Positions 1 through 60,335 of a DNA stretch of 64,000 bases are shown here, piece after piece. The DNA is taken from positions 15,314,001 through 15,378,000 of the forward strand of contig OX597834.1 of NCBI GenBank assembly GCA_951406725.2, written 5' to 3'. Each line of letters begins with the position of its first letter. Position 1 is the first letter of the stretch. The stretch comes from Octopus vulgaris. Taxonomy: Eukaryota. The position numbers and the translations under genes are program-made. Under the pieces are notes generated by a model. That model saw only the letters and a list, made by a program, of their open reading frames with translations, was not told the origin of the DNA and searched no databases.

Positions 1-213
1 TTGGCAGGATCGTTAGCACGCCGGGTGAAATACTTTGCTGTATTTCGTTTGCCGATACGTTCTGAGTTCAAATCCCGCTGAGGTTGACTATGTCTTAAAT
101 TTTTTCGGGGTCGATAAATCAAGTATTAGTTGAGTACTGGGGTCGATGTGATCGACTGTCTCCCTCCCCACAAAATCCAGGCCTTGTGCCTATAGCAGAA
201 ATATTATTATTAT
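1..213 (+). mobile_element. SINE family B, (ATT)n-tail variant
   Basis: TGGCAG..CGTTAGCACGCCGGG head, GAGTTCAAATCC B-box, GGGGTCGAT core, GGCCTTGTGCCTATAG tail, then ATT repeats. Confidence 0.82.
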
Positions 214-12587: not shown

Positions 12588-12803
12588 ATTCTTCTCTACT
12601 CTATGCACAAGGCCCGGAATTTGGGGGAGGGGGCCAGTTGATTAGATCGACCGCAGTATGCAACTTGCACTTAATCTATCGACTCCTGAAAGGATGAAAG
12701 GCAAAGTCGACCTCGGCGGAATTTGAACTCAGAACGTAGCGGCAGACTAAATACCGCTAAGCATTTCGTCCGGAGTGCTAACGTTTCTGCCAGCTTGCCG
12801 CCT
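12588..12803 (-). mobile_element. SINE family B, GGCCTTGTGC-tail variant
   Basis: Reverse complement of family B head and core with the second tail type. Confidence 0.85.
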
Positions 12804-12834
12804 TATCAAGCTTTTGAATATTATAGGAACTAAA

Positions 12835-13134
12835 AGGCGGCGAGCTGGCAGAAACGTTAGCACTCTGGACGAAATGCTTAGCGGTATTTCGTCTGCTGCT
12901 ACGTTCTGAGTTCAAATTCCGACGTGGTCGCCTTTGCCTTTCATCCTTTCGGGGTCGATTAAGTAAGTACCAGTTACGCACTGTGGTCGATATAATCGAC
13001 TTAATCCGTTTGTCTGTCCTTGTTTGTCCCCTCTGTGTTTAACCCCTTGTGGGTAGTAAAGAAATAGGTATTTCGTCTGCCGCTACGTTCTGAGTTCAAA
13101 TTCCTCCGAGGTCGTCTTTGCCTTTCATCCTTTC
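12835..13134 (+). mobile_element. SINE family B, Tx1-like tail, followed by a partial second core (13067-13134)
   Basis: GGCGGCGAGCTGGCAGAAACGTTAG head; TTTGTCTGTCCTTGTTTGTCCCCTCT...AAAGAAATA tail ending 13066. Confidence 0.9.
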
Positions 13135-13769
13135 AGTTCATTCTTGGTGTTACAAGGAGTTTTGTTGGTCCCTCGCTCAACTATACTCCACACATAATAA
13201 TCAAGGAGCAGCAGTCTGGGGAGTTCGGTGGCCAAATGTTAGGGGCAATGTGGAAGCAGAAATTGTCCGTCAGCCATGACTGGGTTTTCCTGCTTGTGTA
13301 GCAGTGAATAGAGACCTGCTTACCAGATATACGGTCTTTCAGCAGCCACCCTCTTGACCCAGGGCAGCACTACCTCTTCCTGGCACACATGATGTAGGCC
13401 TCCGCATTGAGTCTGAGGCCGTGTGGGAAGATGAGTTGAGGCACAACGTAGACATCATTAGTGATCACTCCAAACATCATGATGTTGACTGGATGTTTGA
13501 TTTTTATCCCTCTCTGTACATGTCCTCAGATTGCCCTGTACTCAGATTCACATCGATGTTTGTATTAGGGCTTCCGGTGCGAATGCCAAGAGTACAGCAT
13601 GTCGTTTCCAAATTTTTGGCAGAGCGAATTGCGTCATGGTGCTGTTTTTCTCGCAGACGTTACCCAACTGACCCTACTATACTATGTAGTCAACAAAATC
13701 AAAAATATACAAAGCACATGAGCGAAAATTAAAAATATCAAATAGCGACAATTTACCAATCGCAACCTG
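13135..13769 (-). mobile_element. Degenerate Tc1/mariner-superfamily transposon (transposase relic plus one terminal repeat)
   Basis: Minus-strand translation gives KHPVNIMMFGVI, IFPHGLRLNAEAY, WPPNSPD, LDYYVWSIVERGTNKTPCNTK with frameshifts. End CAGGTTGCGATTGGTAAATTGTCGC next to TA. Confidence 0.82.
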
Positions 13770-18199: not shown

Positions 18200-18815
18200 C
18201 CGACCACATGGTTCCGGGTTCAGTCCCACTGCGTAGCACCTTGGGCAAGTGTCTTCTGCTATAGCCTCGGGCCGATTGAAGCCTTGTCAGTGTATTTGGT
18301 AGACGAAAACTGAAATAATCCCGTCGTATATACATACATATATGTGTGTGTGTGTGTGTGTTTGTGTGTGTGTTGGTTTGTCACCCACCGCCACTTGACA
18401 ACTGGTATTGGTATGTTTACAGGCGGCAAGCTGGCAGAAACGTTAGCACGCAGGGCGAAATGCGTAGCCGTATTTCGTCTGTCGTTACGTTGTGAGTTCA
18501 AATTCCGCCGAGGTCGACTTTGCCTTTCATCCTTTCGGGGTCGATAAATTAAGTACCAGTTACGCAATGGGGTCAATGTAATCGACTTAATACCTATGTC
18601 TGTCCTTGTTTGTCCCCTCTGTGTTTAGCCCCTTGTGGGTAATAAAGAAATAGGTATTAGTATGTTTACGTCACCGTAACTTAGCGGTTCAGAAAGAGAA
18701 ACCGAATATGTATCAGGCTTTAAAAAATACTGCGATCGTCTCATTCAACTAAAACGCTCTTCAAGGCGCTGCTTCAGTATGGCCGCATTCTAATGATTAA
18801 AACAATTAAAAGACG
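18200..18815 (+). mobile_element. SINE family A, diverged, interrupted by a family B insertion
   Basis: Family A sequence stops at 18420 and resumes at 18653. Confidence 0.85.
18421..18652 (+). mobile_element. SINE family B, Tx1-like tail, 17-bp TSD
   Basis: TSD GGTATT(G/A)GTATGTTTAC at 18404-18420 / 18653-18669. Confidence 0.93.
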
Positions 18816-23290: not shown

Positions 23291-23484
23291 CCCACATTCA
23301 TCTGTATGCGTATTAACGGGTTTCATTATTTCCATTGGTCGAAGTTCCACAAATGTAAGTTTGCATGTCCAAGTCTTCTGCAGATATTTGGGCGGGGGCT
23401 GAGAATAATGGCAGAAAATTCATAGCTTCCGATTGGACCGTGTAGGGAAACTCCAGTGGTCTATTTATACTAAAGAGGAAATTA

Positions 23485-23716
23485 AGGCGGCGAGATGGCA
23501 GAAACGTTAGCGCGCCGGGCGAAATGCTTAGCGGTATTTCGCCCGTCGTTACGTTGTGAGTTCAAATTCCGCCGAGGTCGACTTTGCCTTTCATCCTTTC
23601 AGGGTCGATAAATAAAGTAGCAATTTCGCACTCGGGTCGATGTAATCGACTTAATCCCTTTATCTCTCCTTGTTTGTCCCCTCTGTGTTTAGCCCCTTGT
23701 GGGTAGTAAAGAAATA
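23485..23716 (+). mobile_element. SINE family B, Tx1-like tail, 16-bp TSD
   Basis: TSD TATACTAAAGAGGAAA at 23466-23481 / 23717-23732. Confidence 0.92.
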
Positions 23717-28954: not shown

Positions 28955-29185
28955 TATTTCTTTACTGCCCACAAGGGGCTAAACATACAGGGGACAAACA
29001 AGGACGGACAAAGAGATGAAGTTGATTACATTGACCCCAGTGCGAAACTGGTACTTAATTTATCGACCCTGAAAGGATGAAAGGCAAAGTCGACCTCGGC
29101 GGAATTTGAACTCAGAAAGTAACGACAGACGAAATACGGCTACGCATTTCGCCCAGCGTGCTAACGATTCTGCTAGCTCGCCGCC
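28955..29185 (-). mobile_element. SINE family B, Tx1-like tail, 17-bp TSD
   Basis: TSD TTCGATCCAAAGATATC at 28938-28954 / 29186-29202. Confidence 0.92.
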
Positions 29186-30482
29186 TTCGATCCAAAGATA
29201 TCTTCCGCCTCCTGCTATTCTGGAAGGTCTCGGGAATGGTGAAAAGCTACGCCTAGCTGCTTGACTAAAAGATAAAAAACAATATTGTTCTGATATATTA
29301 GAATGGTGTGGTAAGAGGAATACTTCATTGCATTTTCTAACAGGTCGTGTGGCCACGTGGTACGATCATGTCTATCGTGCATTCATGGGTTTATTAATTT
29401 TGCGTGGGCGTGAGGACAGCAATGTCTCGATGGCGTACTGGACGGTCAGTCAACGACTGTTAGTATCCACTAAAACTGTTATTATTGAATCTAGAGAAGA
29501 ATTATTACATCTAGAATAACTCTATTATCATTGTATCTCACCAATGCGAGAGACAAAGAACCAAAGAACATGTCGAGAGAGTTAACTTACTTGCCTCCGT
29601 TCAATTATCGATTAATATAGATTAGCGCTTACCTTAGTAAATATGCTAAGAAAAGTTATGAACGTCACGACTCCCCGTTGTCTTTTCCCATCCCACTTCA
29701 ATTATAGGCACCATTGTGTCTTCACAAACAAAGATGATAATCTAATACTTGAGAAGTTCTTATTTGAAGCAACTAACTCTAACCACTAAGTAACTCGTTG
29801 ATCGTGGAATTTTGCCAGGGAATGTTGGTGCTGAGAGAACGTTGATGGCGTTAAAGAGATTAGCTATTCTTCATATTCTCATTTGCATCTTATTCATTTT
29901 ACTTGACGTCATAATCTAGCTTTGTAGCTGCGGTTATGAAAAGTCAATACCCTCTGCCGTGTAGTCAATTTAAATGTACATTTATGAAATTCGTTCAAGA
30001 AAACGTAGCCGAGGTTAAAACATTCCATCGCTCCGACCACACAAATACGTTTTCGTTAGAAGTTTGTGATTTCGGTTTCTTATATAGTTCTGAAATCGGC
30101 GAATACAAATAAATATACTTACATACGTATTATGTATATATATATATGTAACATATGGTATAATTATAAACAGGGCAAATTTGACCTATTTCTCTACAGA
30201 CTGAAAAAAAAATGAACAAACTTAATCGATTTTCGAACCTTATTTCGTTCTCATCAGAGGCGTCTGCACCATTATGACAGCGGCCTGTCAACGAGGATCT
30301 TAGTCCACACAGTATCAAGATATGTATACACGCACACACACACATATATATATACAAAGTAATACAGGGGTTATGGGTGCAACCCACTATGGGACAGTAT
30401 TTATCCAATATACTGTCGAGTGAATAAATAGTCCAACATTCTAATATCCGAAAGTTGATGAACAAACTAAATTTGTTTCTCC

Positions 30483-37829: not shown

Positions 37830-38068
37830 TAATAATAATGATGATGATAATAATAATACTTCCTACTAAAGGCAGACGGGCCTGAATTTGGTCTCAGCGG
37901 ACAATCGATTATATCGACCCCACTTTTCACTGGTTCTTAATTCATCGACCCCGAAAAGATGAAAGGCATAGTGAACCTCAGCGGAATTTGTACTCGGAAC
38001 GTAGCGACGGACGAATTACCCCTAAGTATTTCGTCGAGTGCGCTAACGATTCTGCCAGCTCGCCGCCT
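37830..38068 (-). mobile_element. SINE family B, (ATT)n-tail variant, diverged
   Basis: Head and core on the minus strand, ending in (ATT)n. Confidence 0.78.
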
Positions 38069-38083
38069 TGCTGATAATGATAA

Positions 38084-39364: not shown

Positions 39365-39960
39365 TTGAGAATTAAAATAGCCACCAAGTTCAAAACACAA
39401 CCGGCCACATATATCTTTGTGTGAGAGCACAAAGAAAAGATATATTCTTATTTCTTTATTGCCCACAAGGGGCTAAACACAGAGGGGACAAACAAGGACA
39501 GACAAAGGGATTAAATCGATTACATCGACCCCAGTGCGTAACTGGTACTTAATTTATCGACCCCGAAAGGATGAAAGCCAAAGTCGACCTCGGCGAAGTT
39601 TGAACTCAGAACGTAACGGCAGACGAAATACTGCTAAGCATTTCGCCCGGCGTGCTTACCATTCTGCCAGCTCGACGCTTTAACATTTTAAAGATATATT
39701 CTGACGTGGAAACCGGCTGCCCTTTGGACACGAATGTGGCTAGAAAAATACAAGAGAAAGCGGACATCATTGGACCATTGATAAGGAGTTTGCAAATCCA
39801 GTAACCAAGGTACACTTTCAGTTTCATACCTATTATTATTAGAGCTACAGAATACATACCTACCCATCTGGAGCAGAGTATGACTAAACTTGGGATCTTG
39901 GGGAGAGAATACAAATCCTTAACGTCGAGATGTCTGGGACTATACTAATCTCGAACACCT
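39365..39960 (+). pseudogene. Restriction-like endonuclease domain relic of an R4/NeSL-type non-LTR element, interrupted by a family B SINE
   Basis: KHNRPH (normally HNRPD) before the SINE; after it, GCPLDTNVARKIQEKADIIGPLIRSLQ and FSFIPIII. Confidence 0.65.
39449..39680 (-). mobile_element. SINE family B, Tx1-like tail, ~13-bp TSD
   Basis: TSD AAAGATATATTCT at 39436-39448 / 39690-39702. Confidence 0.9.
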
Positions 39961-40249
39961 TCTTGAGATTTGAAAGGTGATGGTTAAAATAGGATACTTT
40001 CCTTCACAATATTCTAGTCTGTCAAAATTTACTGTAAAATTAAAAGGAAAAATAGAATAATATACAATTATACATACATGCATGTATATTATGGTTTTGT
40101 TGTAAAGTGTTTCTTCAGATGAGAGAGTGCTACTTGAAGGGAGAGAATAGCTTCTAGGGTTATTTTTCTTATGGTGAGTAATCACTATCGAAGAGTGAAG
40201 AGCGTACACATATATTTCCATATAATCCGTCCATAAAATATAATGCTCT

Positions 40250-40535
40250 TTGTTCCTTCGCGAGCCATGCCTGGCTCATAAGGTCCGGTTTCCCGGTTTC
40301 CTTGGCGTATAAGTTCCCCACCTGGACGGGACGCCGGTCCGTCGCAGGTGAGCTGCAAGATGCAGGAGGAAAAAGTGAGAGAAAGTCAGCAGAAGTTCGC
40401 CATTACCTTCAGCCGGAGTCGCGTGGAGCTTAGGTGTTTCGCTCATAAACACACACATCGCCCGGTCTGAGATTCGAACTCGCGATCCCTCGACTGCGAG
40501 TCCGCTGCACTAACCACTAGGTCATGTGCCTCCAC
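40250..40535 (-). mobile_element. SINE family C-related, tail type 2
   Basis: Reverse complement has a tRNA-like head (GAGTTCGAATCTC) and the same CCCGTCCAG/GAAACCGG tail. Confidence 0.85.
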
Positions 40536-41278: not shown

Positions 41279-41313
41279 ACAGGAGTGGCTGTGTGGTAAG
41301 TAGCTTGCTAACC
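41279..41313 (+). mobile_element. SINE family A, 5' stub (A-box region) left of the LINE
   Basis: CAGGAGTGGCTGTGTGGTAAGTAGCTTGCTAACC matches the head of other family A copies (e.g. 48277 onward). Confidence 0.9.
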
Positions 41314-41702
41314 TCACTGACAGAAGAGTGACTTTGCCTACCGTACTACGGTTTGGACGCGTTTTCTTCCCGGTAAGAGTTTTGCTGTGTTGTTAATTGT
41401 TGAATTCCTACTACTGAAAATTTGCCTTTAAACGTTGCTGAACTGTCTTGTTCTCCGGTTTTACCGGGAAATAATTGAATAATTTCTTACCGTTGAACTG
41501 TTAGCCACTGTGGCTTTTTATTTACGTGACTATATATAGTCCTGCCAGACTATTTTCGTGCCCCTCCCCCGAATGGGGGTGGGAATTGGAATTTTTGAAC
41601 TGCTTTTTTGAACTACTTTGGAAGAAAAACTTTCTATAGGTTTCCCAGTTTCGTGGGAAACCAATATTCGTAATTTTTGTGTTGTCTAATTTCAACAGAA
41701 TA

Positions 41703-43105
41703 ATGTCTGTTGAAATTATTCACGAAAGTAGTGCTCTTGAGGAGAGCAATGTTAAAAAATTTTCTGAGGTAGCCGCAGTGGCTACCGAGAAGATTGACAT
41801 CGATGTCAACCAGCTCGTCGAGCTATTTAAAAGAATGCAAGAGGAGGGTGGTGATGTTAAAATATCACCCTCCGCCAGTATCGTGGAGACCGAGAAGCGG
41901 ACCGTAGTGTTTAAAACTTTCTGTCCACAAAGCAGAAGGTTCAAACACTTTGAAAAAAGCACCATCGAGAAATGCCTGTCCCCGATTTGGAAGGACATCG
42001 TGTACGTCGCCAGGGGACGGGCATATGGCACTGTGGATGTCCGCTTCTCGGGGGAAGAAATGGCCCGCGGGCATTCTGTGAACCCCCTAAAAACCAAGGA
42101 GGTGGTACTTTTTCCAAGCTATAGGGGACGCAGGTCGTCCCGGGTCAGGATTGTAGAAGCCCCGCCGGACGTAGATCCGGTAGAGGTAGTGGCCGCCCTG
42201 TTATATAAAAGGGCGGACAAAATAAAAATACTAGAAGTAACATGCTCTACCCCTCGATTTTGGCTCGGGCGTAACATTAATATATTAATTCAAGGAACAG
42301 CGGAGGACCTGCAGCTCCTTCCTGAGAGGGTGCCCGTGGGCGAGAACGTAGCCCTCAGGGTACAGGTCGAAGGCCGAAAACCCACCTGTTACGCCTGCAA
42401 CAAAAAGGGCCACATTCGTGTAGACTGTCCAGACAAGCAAAAGAAACCGCAGACACCAGGCCCCTCAGATAATAAAAAAGTCCCTACCCTTGCAAACACA
42501 CCTACCCCTACAAAAACAAAAAATCCCACTCCTGCTGTTACGGTGCCAACCCCAAAACAGACTGAAGAAAAAACCCAGCCCTCGCACTCACAAACCCCTA
42601 CACTATTAAAACCTCCCACCCCCTAAAAACTGCGGCGCCTACCGAACAAACTATTGCTACCACAGACGATACCATGGAGGTATCAGAGGGGGGATTTACA
42701 CCAGTTCGTAAAAGAATTCGTGCAGCATCCCCGTCCACATCCCCTACAAAAAATAATAAAAACAAAGACACACCACAGACACGGAAAAAAAAATCCCGCT
42801 CAACTGGCCCAGAAAAAGAAGACAAAAAAGAAAATGAACTCATATTAATTGAATTCGACACACAAGACAAATACATAAACGATATTGTGGTTCAGCATCA
42901 GTCAGCAAGACTGTACAACAAATACAAAGATCGAAATAGACACGCGTGGATTGCGGAAACAACGTTCAAACAATTAAAAGACAGACACCCAGACGCCATC
43001 CGGCATATCGCGAACTTGCAGGACTATCTGAAGAAAGAGGAGAAAGAAGGGGCCCACAAACGTGTGGTGAGGTCGGCCCCCACCTCTCCAACGAAATGTA
43101 AGTAG
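41703..43105 (+). CDS. Tx1-type ORF1 (gag-like nucleic-acid chaperone, zinc knuckle), split by one -1 frameshift at C-run 42619-42623
   Basis: ATG at 41703 (MSVEIIHE...), CX2CX4HX4C motif CYACNKKGHIRVDC, then a P/T/K-rich tail. One extra C joins ORF 41679..42626 to the open frame of ORF 42674..43105 (~467 aa). Confidence 0.85.
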
Positions 43106-43121
43106 AACCTTTACTTTTGTA

Positions 43122-46100
43122 ATGGCTTCGCTTAACCTTGGTTGTTTAAATGTGCGTGGTCTGAGTTCGAAGTGGAAGCAGGCTTGTTTCCTCGACGACC
43201 TCAGATCACATGATATACATGTGATGGTTGCTACAGAGACCAAGCTGGACAGCCTACAAACCTTCTCGCCTCTCCTGAATGGCTACGAGAAAATCATGTC
43301 TCCTGGCCAGACCGGAGGGCGAGGGGGCGTAGTGGTACTGATCCGTAAAGACTTGGCTCTACAGACAAGTACAGTCTATGTAGACCCAGAAGGTGGGCTG
43401 GTCGTCCTTGATGTGACATACAGCAGTAAGGCCTTCAGGTTAATCGGACTCTATGCACCTTGTGCTAGAGGTTTCCAAACTGATTTTTATCGGCGCCTAG
43501 AGGGCTTTCTCGTGACGTCGAAGACTTTAGTGATATTAGGGGACTTTAATGCTATCGTTGACGTACACATCGATAGCGTTGGCTCGATCTATAGGAAAGT
43601 GAACTCACGTCTCGTGGATCTGCTTAAGCGGTTTCAGCTAGCAGATCGTTACAGACTTGACCATCCGAACGTCCCAGAGTGGACCTGGATGAGTGGCGAC
43701 GGAAGGTTCAAGTCTTATCTAGACAGGATAGTGATAAGAACTAGAGATAAGTCTAGTTTCAGTTGTCCACAGCTCGTCCAGGTGCCCTATACTGACCATA
43801 GAATGGTCACGTGTAGACTGGACATAGATAGCACACTTAAGATAGGAACCGGCTACTGGAAGCTGAACAAGTCTATTTTGACACGCGAGGCATACCGTAG
43901 CCGGATTAAGGTGTTAGTGCAGAGGGCGTTAACCGGAGCCGTGGTTAATAACCGGTGGTGGTTCACCCTCAAAAGAGCCATTCGATTCGAGTCCATTAGA
44001 TTTAGTAAACAACTAAGACTAGATAGGGCTAGAATAGAAGGGCAACTAGTTAAGAACTTAGAGGAGGCGTTGAGGTTGGGCTCTGCATCTCACATTTTAG
44101 CGGCGAGAACGGCATTAGACCGTCACCTCAAAACCAAACATGAGGGATGTAGAGTCCGGGCTAAAGTACGAGCATTGGGCCGTGAGGGAATTAATGTTGC
44201 CGGATGGGCCCGTACGATAGAAACACAGCGTGGAAACGATGCCACAATTGGGTCTCTTGTTGATGAAAACGGATGCACGATCAAGAAGCGGGACGAGATG
44301 TGTGAGGCACTCCACAAGCACTTCGCCGAGTTGTTCGGGAGGTGCGGGACGCTGGATCATGGTGAGGCCCTTAGGGACTTCCTGTCTGGTGGCCCGCGCC
44401 TCTCGACACGAGAGGCTGAGTGCTGTGAAGGGCCAATCACAGCCGAGGAAGTAATCGAGGTGTTGGGCAAGTGCCCCGGGGAGAAGTCGCCGGGTCTCGA
44501 TGGTCTGCCCTATGAATTTTATAGAAGTATGCCAAACTTGTTCGGGCACCTGCTGGCTAGCGTCTACGCCAACTGGCAGCAGAATGGGAGAATTCCCAAG
44601 TCTGCGAGCCGGGGGGCGGTGACCTTGATCAGGAAGGACCCGAACAAGGGGGACGAGATAGGGAACTTCAGGCCCATAACTCTGTTAAACACAGAGTTAA
44701 AGATTCTGGCCAAGGTGCTAGCAAAAAGGTTGGCGCGGGTCGTGGACAAACTTGTCGGGGAAGCGCAAACGTGCGCTATCCCCGGCAGAACGATCCACGA
44801 CAATCTCCACCTTATACGCTACTCCTTAGAGAGGGTGGGGAAGCTTTCTGGCGCAGGGGGAGCACTGGTACATTTAGACCAGTCCAAAGCATTTGATAGG
44901 GTCGACCATCGGTACCTGGCGGCGGTCCTCGGAGAGGCTGGCCTAGGCCCGACCTTTCGAGGTTGGATCGCTGCTTTGTATAGCGACATCGAGTCTGTAG
45001 TCAAGGTGAACGGTTCCTTTTCGAAGCCGTTCAGGATCGAGCGTTCAGTTCGTCAAGGGTGTCCCCTGTCCTCGCTCCTATACGTATTGGCTCTTGAGCC
45101 TTTGCTGCGGAAGTTGGAGGCACTAGGGGGCGCGCCGCATGATCTATGGTGTGGAAGAGGAGCTACGGCGTATGCGGATGACACCTCCATCATCGTGGCA
45201 GACGAAGGCCAGCTTCCAGTGGTGGAAGAGGCCATAAAAAGCTACGAGGCGGTGGCAGGAGCAAAGGTTAACAAGGACAAGTCGGTCGGTTTGCAACTCG
45301 GCACCTGGAGGGGCAAGCCGATGCCGTCCAATAACGTCGTAGGGCGTTGGACGGAAGGTCCTGTTAAGCTGCTCGGAGTCTGGTTCGGGCCAGACCTCCA
45401 GATTGAGAAAAATTGGAGTGAGGTGGCCAACAAGGTGACCGCTCTAACCCAGACCTGGTCTGGGCGGGCGTTATCCCTGCTAGGGAAGGCGGAGGTGGTG
45501 CAGATGTTTATAGCATCAGTAATCACCTACCGTCTGACCGTGGTGCCTTGCCCCGATTTGTGGCTGAACAAGTTGGAGAGAATCCTTTTCCGATTTTTGT
45601 GGAAAGGAGGAAAGCCACTTGTAAAGCGCTCTGTCTGCTGCCAGAAACCGCTAAAGGGTGGGCTAGGGATGCCTTGGCTGAGGATGCGAAAACTCGCGTT
45701 AAGGTTGAGGCACCTCTGGCTTTACCTGGATGGAGAGCAGGTGTGGTCGCCGCACGTCCGGTTCTACCTTCCCCAGTTAACATCCCTAACGGACATCGGT
45801 GCATGGATCAAGCGGAGACCTAAACTGAGTGAATGGCATTTGGAGTGCCGTCAGGCGCTCCAGCTACTATCTCGGGTGGGCAACGCCGGCAACAGGAGTT
45901 CCACCACGGATTTCTATAGCGGGTTAGTGGAGATTAAGTCCGAAGACGCCTTGGGGAGACCCTGGGCTACGATGAAAATCAGTTGATCAACCTGTTCCGG
46001 AGGACGTTCGGGCCGGGGTATCTGGATAATTACCAGAAATCCCTAGCCTGGCAGTGTTTCCGTGCGGCTTTACCTGTTCGCGACAAGCTGTCAAGGCACG

Positions 46101-46522
46101 GTAGTGCCGTCTCGCCGACATGCCCGCGATGTGAGCAGGATAGGGAGACCGTCTTGCACGCATTCGTGGAGTGTCCGGAGTTATCGGGACTTATAGCTTT
46201 TGTAGAACAACTGTTGTCAGTGATGGGAAGAGTACAGCTATCAGCTGAGTCTATCATCGAGATTGTGCCGCCCCCTTTCCTTAACAGGGAAAGAAAGGCT
46301 TGTTTTTTCTGTGTAGTAGCCATACTGAAAGAAACAGTATGGAAGACGCGTACGAAAGGTATAGTGACAGGCACCTTTGTCTCCGGCCAGGGGTTGATTA
46401 ACTTTTTTAGTTACCACCTCAGTAGCAAAATCAGGCTGGAGAAGAGGTGTCTGTCACGAGATATGTTTGTGAAAAGATGGAAGCCTGTGGCATACAAGAT
46501 GGGTATGTTTGGCACCAGGTAA
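43122..46522 (+). CDS. Tx1-type ORF2 (APE endonuclease, reverse transcriptase, C-terminal zinc finger), split by one -1 frameshift at G-run 45953-45956
   Basis: EN motifs NVRGL, ETK, GDFNA, LDRI, TDH. RT motifs KSPGLDG, FRPITLLN, LDQSKAFDRV, VRQGCPLS, YADD. CPRC-x8-H-x4-C in ORF 45983..46522. One extra G gives ~1133 aa. Confidence 0.93.
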
Positions 46523-46750
46523 GTGTGACCGGATCAGAAAGTAAAGGTTCTACCCGGATGGCTGGGTGTCCGTCCTTCGACATGATCATTAATATTTTTA
46601 AACATTGCCTTCGTAAAATTCATTGTTTATAATCTTATCCGTAATTTCATTCGAAAATTGTAACTGTGTTAAGCTACTTCACCCTTTATATTTGTCTGTC
46701 CTTGTTTGTCCCCTCTTTGTAAATGCCTAAATGGCAAATTATATGAAATA

Positions 46751-47122
46751 AAGTAGCTTGTTTACCAACCACATGGTTCCGGGTTCAGTCCTACTGCGTG
46801 GCACCTTGGGCAAGTGTCTTCTACTATAGCCTCGGGCCGACCAAAGCCTTGTGAGTGGATTTGGTAGACGGAAACTGAAAGAAGCCCGTCGTATATATGT
46901 ATATATATGTATGTGCGTGTATGTTTGTGTGTCTGTGTTTGTCCCCCAACATCGCTTGACACCGTCACATAGCGGTTCGGCAAACCAGACCGATAGAATA
47001 AGTACTGGGCTTACAAAGAATAAGTCCCGGGGTCGAGTTGCTCGATTAAAGGCGGTGCACCAGCATGGCCGCAGTCAAAATGACTGAAACAAGTAAAAAG
47101 AAAAAAAGAGAAAAGAAAAGAG
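46751..47122 (+). mobile_element. SINE family A, remainder (B-box, core, internal microsatellite, tail) right of the LINE
   Basis: Resumes the family A sequence where the 5' stub stops: GGTTCAGTCC B-box, ACCTTGGGCAAGTG, ...GACTGAAACAAGTAAAAAG tail. Confidence 0.93.
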
Positions 47123-52096: not shown

Positions 52097-52232
52097 AGGC
52101 GTCGAGCTGCAAAAATCATGAGCACGCCGGGTTTTGCCTTTCATCCTTTCGGTGTCGATAAATTAAGTACCAGCTGCGTACTGGGGTCGATCACCTCCCC
52201 CAAAATATCAGGCCTTGTACCTTGTATAAAGG

Positions 52233-52268
<36 letters not shown>

Positions 52269-52475
52269 ATCGTTAGCACACTGAACGAAATTTTGAACGG
52301 TATTTCGCCCGTCGCTCCGTTCTGGGTTCAAATTCTGCTGAGGTCGGTTTTGCTTTTCCTCCTTTCAGGGTCGATAAAAAAAGTACCAGCTGACCTCTGG
52401 GGTCGATGTAACCGCCAAATCCCCTCTCTTGAAATTGCTGCCCTTGTGGCAAAATTTGAAACCATCATCATTATT
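52097..52475 (+). mobile_element. Two tandem SINE family B copies, (ATT)n-tail variants
   Basis: CCTTTCATCCTTTCGG-GTCGATAAA core twice, each followed by ATT repeats. Confidence 0.75.
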
Positions 52476-58559: not shown

Positions 58560-59224
58560 GTATAAAGACACTAATATACATGGGAAGAGTCGATGTAATA
58601 TGTTTACATTTTTATCTTTTGTTCTTTTTGTTTTTGTTTCTGTTGTTATTTTGTCGTGTATAGATTTGTTGTCTTTTTTTATCTTTATTGTTGTTTACAT
58701 TGTTGCCATTTTGACTTTAATCAATAACTCTTCTTTACCGAATCAATTTTTAACCTATTATTTCGTAGGTTGGCTACAGATATTGGTAGTTGACGAAATA
58801 TAGAAAGATGTATAAATGTTTCAGCGAAAGCAAAACAAAAAGGAATTGAATGAAATACACATACAATGAAAAAATAGATGGCAAAAAACAAGAGAGAATT
58901 GTAGAGAGAAAATGAAAGAAAAAAAATGAAAGAGTCAAAGAAAATCAGAAAGAAAAGAAGGAAAGTAAATACAAATAACGAAAAATGAATGAAAGGAAAC
59001 AAAACAGAGGAAACCGCTAGAAAGAGAGAATAGGAAAAAAAAAAAAGAAACAAACAAACAAACGGAGAAGGAAAGAGTCTAGAAAACGAACCAACGAAAA
59101 GCAGAATTGAATGAGTGAAAGAAAGACTTGTTTCCGTACCGGAAAAAATGTTGAGCGGCATTTTTATCCGTCTCCACTTTCTGAGTTCGAATTCCGCTGC
59201 GGTCGACTTTACCTTTCATCCTTT

Positions 59225-59490
59225 CCTAATATCAATTATTCCTCTGCCACCATTCTTTCTTTTCATATACAGTCTGTTTACGTTTGCTTTAGGGTGTAGC
59301 GCCCCATGCCGCGTCACCAACTTTTTCGTCCTTCTATCCAGTGTTGAAATTTCATCCTTAATCCATTTGAGGATGTATGCAATATATCTGACTATTGCAG
59401 CTGCCCAGATATTTATTGCAGTGATTAAACTTTTGGCATTCAAGTGGGATTTCAACACCATCTTCACCCTTGATATGCCTCGCGGACCTT
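59225..59490 (-). pseudogene. R4/Dong-like non-LTR RT C-terminal fragment
   Basis: LNAKSLITAINIWA..VRY..LDRRTKKLVTRHGALHPKANVNRLYMKRKNGGRG is typical of R4-clade elements; abuts (ATT)n. Confidence 0.8.
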
Positions 59491-59492
59491 GA

Positions 59493-59543
<51 letters not shown>

Positions 59544-59544
<1 letters not shown>

Positions 59545-59975
59545 GAGTGAGAGAGCAGTGCATATCATCGAAGTGACACTTGGATACGAATACCCGAAGC
59601 CTGATATACCCATCATGGCTACCCGTCTGATAAGGGTGCACCAGGGATATGCATCACAAACATATTACCCGATATGGCGGCCTTATATCGAGATAAACAG
59701 TGCATGACCTTGCAGGTGGAGCAAAGTTAGAATTTTCTTCAGATTGAGTAGCCCATCCGACTCAAAATATTTCTCAATGAGGGTTCTATTAAGGATGTTG
59801 AACGAAACACCTATGCCTCGAGACATGAATTATTCAAACCCCAAAGAATTCTTCTCAACGAGTAGGATTATTGCATCTCCTACTCATGATCAGAGATGTA
59901 GATATCGTTATCCAATAAGGGACATGCTCAACAGGGTAAGGCCAAGCAACTGAGCAAATCTGTGGCGAGATTGAG
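59544..59975 (-). mobile_element. ~420 bp interspersed repeat, second copy
   Basis: Colinear with 214-632 (AAGTGACACT, CTGATAAG, GATCAGAGATG, GCAAATCTGTGG). Confidence 0.75.
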
Positions 59976-59977
59976 CC

Positions 59978-60335
59978 ATCACCGTTTCTTCGAAGCGAAA
60001 CACGAAGATTGCGTTGTTAGAATTAAGGCCCATGTGCTCACACTGGAAGGAACTAAAGCTGTCCAATGGACCCCAACGGTGCGGACGCGACTCGGAAACA
60101 AAACCGCAATCAGGTCTTTGACGGATAGGGATGGGCGCGAGCTACGCGGCCCCGAGCAGATGTGTGTGGCTTTTCTACAGCACTTTGCGCCGCTCTTTGG
60201 AGAGGGCGACGGGTCGACGACGGTTCTTGGAATTTAGAGCTCGTAACTGGACTGCACATCTTGCTGCGGTTGTCCACACCTGATGCGAGGATATGTGAAA
60301 GGTCGATAACAGGCGATGAAATTTCCGGGCGATGA
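59978..60335 (+). pseudogene. Relic of a second, diverged Tx1-family ORF2
   Basis: KHEDCVVRIKA..EG..W..GNKTAIRSLTD..G..MC.AF..HFAPLFG and RLSTPDARICERSITGDE align with ORF2 KHEGCRVRAK..EG..W..GNDATIGSLVD..G..MCEAL..HFAELFG..RLSTREAECCEGPITAEE. Confidence 0.85.

Follow-up and report, generated by a model that had tools for sequence, protein, structure and literature searches.

Pairs of SINEs and LINEs that share their tails, and the borrowing of such tails by SINEs, are well known. The covered parts of the comparative literature tabulate 58 SINE/LINE pairs, three of which have L1 tails (from maize, sorghum and Chlamydomonas) and none a Tx1 tail (PMC3472496, PMC3747384). According to the same sections, ZmSINE2/ZmSINE3 with LINE1-1_ZM and SINEX-3_CR with L1-1_CR resemble the case described here in that an L1-group LINE and a SINE have a common 3' end, theirs extending over about 50-80 nt (PMC3472496, PMC3747384). 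The crocodilian pair SINEU/Tx1-Mar provides a second point of likeness, with a Tx1-clade LINE as the proposed SINE partner and Tx1 families that prefer to insert in other repeats; in the sections covered, no LINE with a common 3' end is reported for SINEU-1, and SINEU ends in poly(A) (PMC4494074). For UnaL2/UnaSINE, ZfL2-1 and ZfL2-2, the excerpts available describe an ORF2p that reads a 3' stem-loop with a changeable stem and a steadier loop, a mode of recognition that we adopt here as a model (PMC4176376, PMC3747384). In zebrafish L2, the loop confers specificity and the stems are exchangeable, as far as that source was covered (PMC4176376).

In the covered parts of a survey of Octopus vulgaris, SINEs make up 11.6% of the assembly, and 80 L1-Tx1 families, 13 of them recently active, occupy 56 Mb (PMC13282606). 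Octopus SINEs and LINEs have been catalogued without naming SINE partners in the parts covered (PMC13282606, PMC8967140, PMC9115989), and the word 'partner' is absent from the main text (2026) and the searched supplement of PMC13282606. Likewise, 'L1-Tx1', 'octopus' and 'cephalopod' are absent from the main text of a 2024 study of bivalve SINEs (PMC11481361), and the searched part of the MetaSINE supplement yielded nothing. In the covered literature, with Repbase outside the search, we found neither a Tx1 SINE/LINE pair with a shared tail (including PMC4758252, PMC4824008, PMC5786205 and PMC3531059, each in part) nor a LINE partner of any octopus SINE.

Here, we analyse a 64-kb stretch of O. 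vulgaris DNA (the window), for which a LINE and a SINE family, SINE B, had been predicted to form a Tx1 LINE/SINE partner pair. What appears to be new is the borrowing of a tail in a Tx1-like animal lineage that has a conserved structured end; the pair itself may already be listed in Repbase.

Results

The LINE and its insertion site

The LINE and its landmarks, all on the forward strand, are the following:

41298..41313, +, target-site duplication (TSD) of the LINE, 5' copy, inside a SINE A head
41314..46750, +, full-length L1/Tx1-type LINE, 5437 bp, with frame breaks in ORF1 and ORF2
41703..43105, +, region of ORF1, encoding a CCHC zinc knuckle (zf-CCHC, E 7.8e-5); the first frame ends in a stop at 42624-42626, a further open frame covers 42566-43105
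43122..46522, +, ORF2 with endonuclease, reverse transcriptase (RT) and zf-RVT; frame break between about 45938 and 45986
46523..46750, +, 3' UTR of the LINE
46691..46716, +, 26-nt pyrimidine-rich block shared with SINE B
46724..46736, +, LINE hairpin TGCC-TAAAT-GGCA, plus a predicted lower stem
46745..46750, +, terminal GAAATA of the LINE
46751..46766, +, TSD of the LINE, 3' copy, with two differences from the 5' copy
46751..47100, +, remainder of the host SINE A, whose first part lies at about 41280-41313

ORF2 contains the Pfam domains Exo_endo_phos, RVT_1 and zf-RVT, as expected of the L1 group (APE endonuclease, RT and a C-terminal zinc-binding motif). Among solved proteins, for which the matches comprised L1 and R2 types only, it was most similar to L1 ORF2p (E 5e-67, residues 22-887), with R2 proteins reaching E 4e-20 at best. 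ORF1 has a zf-CCHC domain and lacks Transposase_22, as is typical of the Type I ORF1 of Tx1, and it groups with CCHC/RRM-type clusters at 0.90-0.93; ORF1s of this type in non-mammalian animals are tied to Tx1 in the covered part of PMC5203782. The nearest protein with a species name comes from Argonauta hians (64% over the RT region), in keeping with an octopod host. As far as these tests go, the element appears to be a Tx1-like member of the L1 group, a placement that is no narrower with an RT tree free of named Tx1 references.

Elsewhere in the window, another LINE of this lineage is represented at 59965-60323 (+) by a decayed internal fragment (41% to ORF2, 58% to P0004), and none of the ten other long ORFs matched a Pfam family. 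The 150 best of 436 rows of a window-wide Rfam search were all microRNA families below their gathering scores, which we read as microsatellite matches.

The LINE lies within the head of a SINE A, at its A-box region, flanked by a 16-bp TSD with two mismatches, of which 10 bp are perfect. Both differences correspond to variants present in other SINE A copies (1/7 and 2/7), a hint that the two flanks may derive from different SINE A elements, since such differences would be odd for a young insertion. Among the sequencing-run contigs described below, the tail of one diverged contig (X1 record 8, depth 4) also continues into a SINE A head, whereas that of another (X12 record 16) does not, so that a preference of the LINE for SINE A targets, with this copy and one contig for it and one contig not, can serve only as a lead. 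In the Tx1 clade, preferences for particular target sites are common, though not universal. SINE A itself has an internal TTTGTCCCC motif (46950-46956, and in other copies) that resembles the end of the shared block. Its terminal hairpin, CAGTC-AAAT-GACTG, suggests that SINE A may be served by a different partner LINE. A third SINE-like element with an A/B-box-like head, at about 40245-40535 (-), is by eye unlike both SINE A and SINE B.

SINE B copies and their tails

Ohshima and Okada reportedly described the octopus SINEs OK, OR1 and OR2 in 1994, and the tRNA-derived SINEs known from octopus probably include both SINE A and SINE B. ARAGORN found 0 genes, and in Rfam neither copy B3 nor one SINE A head matched a tRNA at E values up to 10. 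A profile of the SINE B body matched the window 13 times, including the five copies of the original family and five additional ones with other tails, here called B' and B'':

12834..13066, +, SINE B copy B1; lacks a TSD and is directly adjoined by a partial SINE B body (13066-13136)
18421..18652, +, SINE B copy B2; 17-bp TSD with one mismatch; inside a SINE A
23484..23716, +, SINE B copy B3; 16-bp TSD
28955..29187, -, SINE B copy B4; TSD of 15 bp, or 17 counting an AA shared with the element start
39449..39681, -, SINE B copy B5; 13-bp TSD, its 5' side with 8 additional nt
52268..52462, +, B'-tailed SINE B body; without the 26-nt block, CTTGT loop of the SINE on the LINE stem TGCC/GGCA, ATT/ATC repeats behind it
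2..203, +, B''-tailed SINE B body; C-rich run and AGGC-CTTGT-GCCT, then (ATT)n; best match of the relative-tail model described below (E 2.5e-4)
52133..52232, +, B''-tailed SINE B body, partial, followed by (ATT)n; model E 4.4e-3
12590..12804, -, SINE B body with a decayed B'' tail and no (ATT)n after it; model E 0.49
37860..38069, -, SINE B body with a decayed B'' tail and a 6-nt loop, between ATT-type repeats; missed by the model

The five B copies are 232-233 bp long; pairwise they are 88-92% alike, and their likeness to the majority sequence is 94-96%. By an ad hoc pattern, an A-box-like motif is present in 5/5 and a B-box-like motif in 4/5 of them. ATT-type repeats follow the B' copy and three of the four B'' copies. 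TSDs of 13-17 bp had been predicted for four of the five B copies and are indeed present, with the mismatch in B2 and the 8 extra nt of B5 as corrections; their likeness to the LINE's TSD holds for length (16 bp), although the latter is imperfect, given its two mismatches.

In the six letters that directly follow the element, copies B2-B5 agree with B1 (GGTATT) at 16 of 24 positions, an agreement equalled in 5 of 200,000 random four-site draws, in a test chosen post hoc. This agreement could reflect either a target bias of SINE B or the pairing of a 3' extension of its RNA with the target. The single LINE site matches these letters at 0/6 positions in register, and at 3/6 if the first A is assigned to the element. 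At the junction between B1 and the 5'-truncated SINE B body that follows it, GAAATA-GG-TATTTC (13061-13074) forms a perfect inverted repeat, and the two together may represent a dimeric source element whose extension biases target choice. Close by, the SINE B bodies at 12636-12804 (-) and 12834-13066 (+), with unlike tails, lie head to head 29 bp apart and form a long inverted repeat.

A shared block and a common 3' terminus

The 26-nt block of the LINE recurs exactly at 13009-13034 (+) and 39481-39506 (-), with one mismatch at 18595-18620, and with two mismatches each at 23659-23684 and 28987-29012 (-). Counting the LINE and the five B copies, the window thus contains six occurrences, and none of 100 shuffles yielded any. 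The predicted identity of the block between LINE and SINE B is borne out. Of the copies that the prediction had assigned to 18421, 23485, 28955 and 39449, all share the block, but these numbers are element ends rather than block positions, and the copy at 39449 is identical instead of near-identical.

In the LINE, the block is situated 34 nt from the 3' terminus. It is identical between the LINE and the SINE B majority sequence, whereas the remainder of the tails is only about half alike. Once the last 60 nt of the LINE are set aside, the longest exact run shared with copy B5 is 11 nt, and 500 Markov-simulated UTRs gave a longest exact match of 13 nt. The layout downstream of the block is common to both elements: 7 nt are followed by a 4-bp stem with a 5-nt loop, then by 8 nt (LINE) or 6 nt (SINE), and finally by GAAATA. 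As foreseen, all six elements (the LINE and the five B copies) end in GAAATA without an A-run. The shared 3'-terminal sequence occupies the same place relative to both element ends.

A covarying stem

The stem-loops had been described as TGCC-TAAAT-GGCA in the LINE and of a GCCC type in SINE B; both exist, except that the copy with its block at 13009 has ACCC/GGGT and not GCCC/GGGY. As thermodynamic structures, the hairpins are weak (z -1.5 to +0.75 for tails of 68-70 nt), and in two of the five SINE tails the minimum-energy fold differs from the hairpin. The pair probabilities of the hairpin amount to 0.89-1.0 in the whole LINE UTR and to 0.31-0.96 in the four whole SINE RNAs folded.

The two stem types on which covariation had originally been claimed are insufficient by themselves; when the B' and B'' tails are included, covariation becomes better supported. 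In the resulting set of 11 window tails (the LINE, five B, one B' and four B''), 93.2% of the cells are paired and 3/4 pairs show double changes. The covariation score of 0.727 was reached in 0/500 shuffles, and slid controls gave 0.18 at most; two of five covariation measures were not above shuffles (181/500 and 120/500). One copy whose 6-nt loop puts it one column off (37883) was retained in the alignment and scored as a broken pair. The 4-bp tail stem thus covaries, in a comparison that comprises only three independent stem types and in which the structure was read from the same sequences.

The tail in other copies of the LINE family

Twenty of the 24 sequencing runs listed (7 studies) contain 58-83% of the sampled words of 43200-46680, one of them possibly being the window's own source. 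Four runs were aligned to 45960-46778, three of DNA and one (X1) that is RNA by guess only; no run that contains these words is catalogued as RNA. Three contigs lead from the end of ORF2 into the block with zero differences: X12 record 15 (46451-46720; depth 1298, versus 12-32 for the seven other X12 pieces listed), X15 record 32 (46453-46706; depth 402 versus 4-10) and X1 record 7 (46459-46712). Depth is not copy number, yet its ratio points to tens of near-identical LINE copies. With 30 letters beyond 46690, X12 record 15 falls one short of the 31-letter rule for bridging the junction at 46690/46691. This junction is fully bridged by a diverged contig (X12 record 16; 19 other letters and five gaps) that spans 46544-46751 and then continues into other DNA. 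The tail is thus not a peculiarity of the window's copy, since the zero-difference contigs, and the diverged one as well, join the end of ORF2 to the block.

Four further pieces among those listed, about 83-85% alike, cease to align at 46525, right after the ORF2 stop. In 6 of the 15 joints shown (45 in all), the UTR is skipped and the alignment resumes at 46671-46695, in four cases upstream of the block, in letters that only the LINE possesses; the joint from 46525 to 46685 is present in all three DNA runs. With a likeness of 82 and sides of 26-48 letters, these joints could include repeat artefacts. Read with this caution, they suggest that diverged subfamilies retain the block while the rest of their UTR changes.

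The LINE loop varies at positions 46729 and 46730 among LINE-type contigs, and among the run contigs we saw no LINE copy that combines the 26-nt block with a CUUGU loop. All four runs have loose ends at 46724-46741, where other upstream sequences without the 26-nt block are joined at or within the terminal hairpin; these are probably further LINE subfamilies or SINEs that share the terminus. One loose-end consensus from X1 reads TGCC and then CTTG ahead of the 3' arm of the stem, and possibly represents a B' SINE.

Distant relatives of the LINE

A scan with the ORF2 alignment returned 46 loci, 42 of which are eukaryote-type LINE arrays in a single record titled as a bacterial metagenome-assembled genome (MAG), probably host DNA. 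These loci (L002-L039, L043, L044, L046 and L047) consist of mostly intact L1/Tx1-type LINEs arranged head to tail with a period of about 6.4-6.9 kb, and comprise 54 ORF2 ends on 16 contigs in five ORF2 clusters at 95%. Such arrays could reflect self-targeting, or a chromosome-end or centromere structure. Compared with the window LINE, they are 39-48% (roughly 42%) identical in ORF2 and 25-27% in ORF1. An RT tree of 34 rows places them as the sister group of the five-row clade that includes the window LINE, the 17 rows together receiving 99/99.

A hairpin of the form AGGC-CTNGT-GCCW is present in 51/51 relative copies with 800 nt of downstream DNA (out of 54 distinct ORF2 ends), all of them from the one assembly record. 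A narrower pattern had missed 4 of 55 ORF2-end matches, two of which, on inspection, had the loop CTAGT; the figure of 51/51 refers to the wider pattern after de-duplication. The hairpin sits 589-697 nt after the stop codon, with AATAAA 17-21 nt further on, and its loop reads CTTGT in 28, CTCGT in 19 and CTAGT in 4 copies. The terminus reads GAAATAAA in 42/51 copies, and a C-rich run precedes the hairpin in the relative tails printed. Hairpin-bearing relatives include two lineages that are only 48% identical in ORF2.

In a search with a covariance model built from 10 relative tails, three B'' tails topped the 13 window matches (E 2.5e-4, 4.4e-3 and 0.49, as rough values). At E values up to 10, the LINE's own tail, the B tails, B' and the fourth B'' went unmatched by the model. 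When the LINE, B3 and B5 tails were aligned locally to three relative tails, the scores did not exceed those of shuffles (39-148 of 300 reached the score), whereas the B' tail outscored each of 300 shuffles in its alignment to one of these relative tails (L003). The 26-nt block is absent from the distant relatives. The B'' tail is thus clearly, and the B' tail probably, of this LINE lineage's type. The link of the relatives to the B and window-LINE tails rests on architecture, the CTTGT loop and the B/B'/B'' series, given the misses of the model and the alignments at shuffle level. Our reading is that these tails would be drifted forms, tied to the others by their layout, by the CTTGT loop in the case of B, and by the GAAATA end. 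The B''-type tails of the relatives also favour a transfer of the hairpin tail from LINE to SINE; the 26-nt block alone may have moved in either direction. A LINE 3' end carrying a B'' tail was not found within the window.

In the relatives, the CTNGT hairpin is followed, ahead of AATAAA, by a second hairpin (e.g. L030:4449-4490), whose stem letters vary among subfamilies while pairing is kept in the five tails folded, and the lower stem of the window LINE starts with the same letters as one of its variants. The tails could alternatively be aligned such that the LINE's lower stem, TCTTTGTA, corresponds to the second hairpin of the relatives.

The four remaining loci (L040, L041, L042 and L045) are AT-rich and 28-32% identical; no such hairpin was matched or seen in them, and the 3' ends of three, L045 ending earlier, all have poly(A). 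In L040 (4422-4534) and L042 (about 2758-2845), poly(A) is directly followed by 5S rRNA, identified by an Rfam match in L040 and by eye in L042. These two look like 5S-targeting elements, presumably of the kind named Mutsu. A single metagenome contig (L001) matched a 21-nt pattern of the block; it has no similarity to the window or to LINE proteins and was dismissed as a chance match. In viral contigs, the pattern had 0 matches, and protein scans gave no confirmed relative.

Discussion

Our results are best explained by SINE B being a non-autonomous element whose 3' tail would derive from the L1/Tx1-type lineage of the LINE. The original prediction held that this LINE or a close relative mobilises SINE B. 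Its second half is the best reading of the family-wide tail, the hairpin of the distant relatives and the covarying stem, whereas its first half is less well supported: the loop of SINE B, CTTGT, is the commonest one in the relatives, while that of the window LINE is TAAAT, and the high-depth LINE contigs do not differ from the window copy over 254-270 nt, whereas SINE B copies are 94-96% alike to their majority sequence, which makes the LINE family look younger than SINE B. Owing to this mismatch in loop and apparent age, an older or sister subfamily is the likelier driver. That some member of the lineage moved SINE B is, in our judgement, very probable; that it was an older or sister subfamily is a narrower claim, which we still regard as rather likely.

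The mechanism we propose draws on the general model of SINE/LINE retrotransposition. The driver would be an older or sister subfamily bearing both the 26-nt block and a CUUGU loop. SINE B would be transcribed by Pol III from its A and B boxes, and ORF2p would then bind its tail, recognizing the pyrimidine run and the small stem-loop at a fixed distance from the end; block and hairpin together are thus the candidate recognition signal. The endonuclease would nick the target, and reverse transcription would begin at GAAAUA, which would correspond to the front part of the terminal AAUAAA in this lineage, and no poly(A) would therefore be copied. A second nick 13-17 nt away would finally generate the TSD. 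The LINE in the window would belong to a younger family with an altered loop, of which it is a broken copy.

As an alternative, this very LINE family could move SINE B, if its ORF2p read the block, the shape of the stem and the end while tolerating different loop sequences. The identity of the 26-nt block between the young LINE and the SINE majority sequence would fit such a scenario, as would the variability of loop positions 46729 and 46730 among LINE-type contigs. Against it speak the loop itself (UAAAU, not CUUGU), the broken state of the window copy, the weakness of the hairpins, and the contrast between SINE B copies that are 88-92% alike in pairs and 94-96% to their majority sequence and LINE contigs with zero differences. 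Moreover, in the zebrafish L2 elements, which belong to another clade, the loop is the specific determinant and the stems can be swapped, according to the covered part of PMC4176376. We consider it unlikely that this family is the driver.

Less probable again is a purely historical sharing, in which the block moved once, by template switching or conversion in either direction, and another LINE clade copies SINE B, the (ATT)n-linked tails perhaps pointing to the Dong/R4 type. This scenario would account for the fact that only the block is identical, with the rest of the tails about half alike, and that the distant relatives are without it. Beside (ATT)n at 59216-59494 (-) lies a 92-codon fragment, putatively Dong/R4, that resembles the C-terminal part of a LINE RT; it also adjoins a SINE B fragment and is without a 3' end. 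Dong-R4, RTE and CR1 elements have been recently active in O. vulgaris as well, as stated in the covered part of PMC13282606. The (ATT)n-linked B'' tail, however, matches the tail of the L1/Tx1-type relatives, the end point and TSD length agree between LINE and SINE B, and diverged LINE subfamilies keep the block even though the other parts of their UTR cannot be aligned, which argues for a constraint within the LINE. Finally, the view that a SINE B fragment was joined by chance to one LINE copy, or that the likeness is a low-complexity coincidence, might appeal to the density of SINE B (five copies in 64 kb) and the pyrimidine-rich nature of the block, but is so improbable that we reject it, given the 0/100 shuffles, the limit of 13 nt in 500 simulated UTRs and a UTR-block junction that recurs family-wide in high-depth contigs from runs of different studies, together with the joints that rejoin near the block.

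Returning to an older or sister subfamily as the driver, it is tempting to speculate on a broader picture, which we put forward tentatively and with somewhat more doubt than belief. An animal Tx1-like lineage may have kept the stringent recognition of a structured, non-poly(A) tail (a pyrimidine run, a CUNGU stem-loop and GAAAUA) over about 50% divergence in ORF2. Its octopod subfamilies might drive a major SINE by way of three or more co-evolving tails that each have landing sites of their own, GGTATT-like ones with long TSDs for B and (ATT)n for B' and B'', and the LINE may itself favour the A-box region of another SINE. If true, stringent recognition within the L1 group would have an animal example, drawn from sequence, structure and covariation. 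The natural stem and loop variants of the Tx1-like tail, together with the SINEs that borrow it, would provide a direct test system, and the lineage would be a candidate driver of part of the SINE expansion in octopus.

In the covered parts of PMC4494074, SINEU and Tx1-Mar are paired on the grounds of shared targets and shared 5' heads, whereas here the link is the 3' tail. The L2/CR1 pairs belong to another clade, their mechanism has been assayed, and they have tandem-repeat ends (TGTAA in UnaL2) where the elements described here have GAAATA and TSDs of 13-17 bp (PMC4176376, PMC3747384, in the excerpts covered). Bivalve SINEs, as described in the covered sections of PMC11481361 and PMC4824008, show the same principle of one body with several exchangeable LINE-related tails, with shared stretches of 35-61 bp; their partners are CR1, CR1-Zenon, L2 and Nimb, as opposed to a Tx1-like LINE here. 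The same logic applies to the monocot case of maize and sorghum: according to the available sections, LINEs that otherwise differ retain a hairpin there, whose loop is conserved and whose stem shows compensatory changes (PMC3472496, PMC3747384). While the LINEs of maize, sorghum and Chlamydomonas are plant and algal L1s in the parts of these sources covered (PMC3472496, PMC3747384), the octopus lineage is animal and Tx1-like, its tail ends without an A-run, and a single SINE body is found with three different tails.
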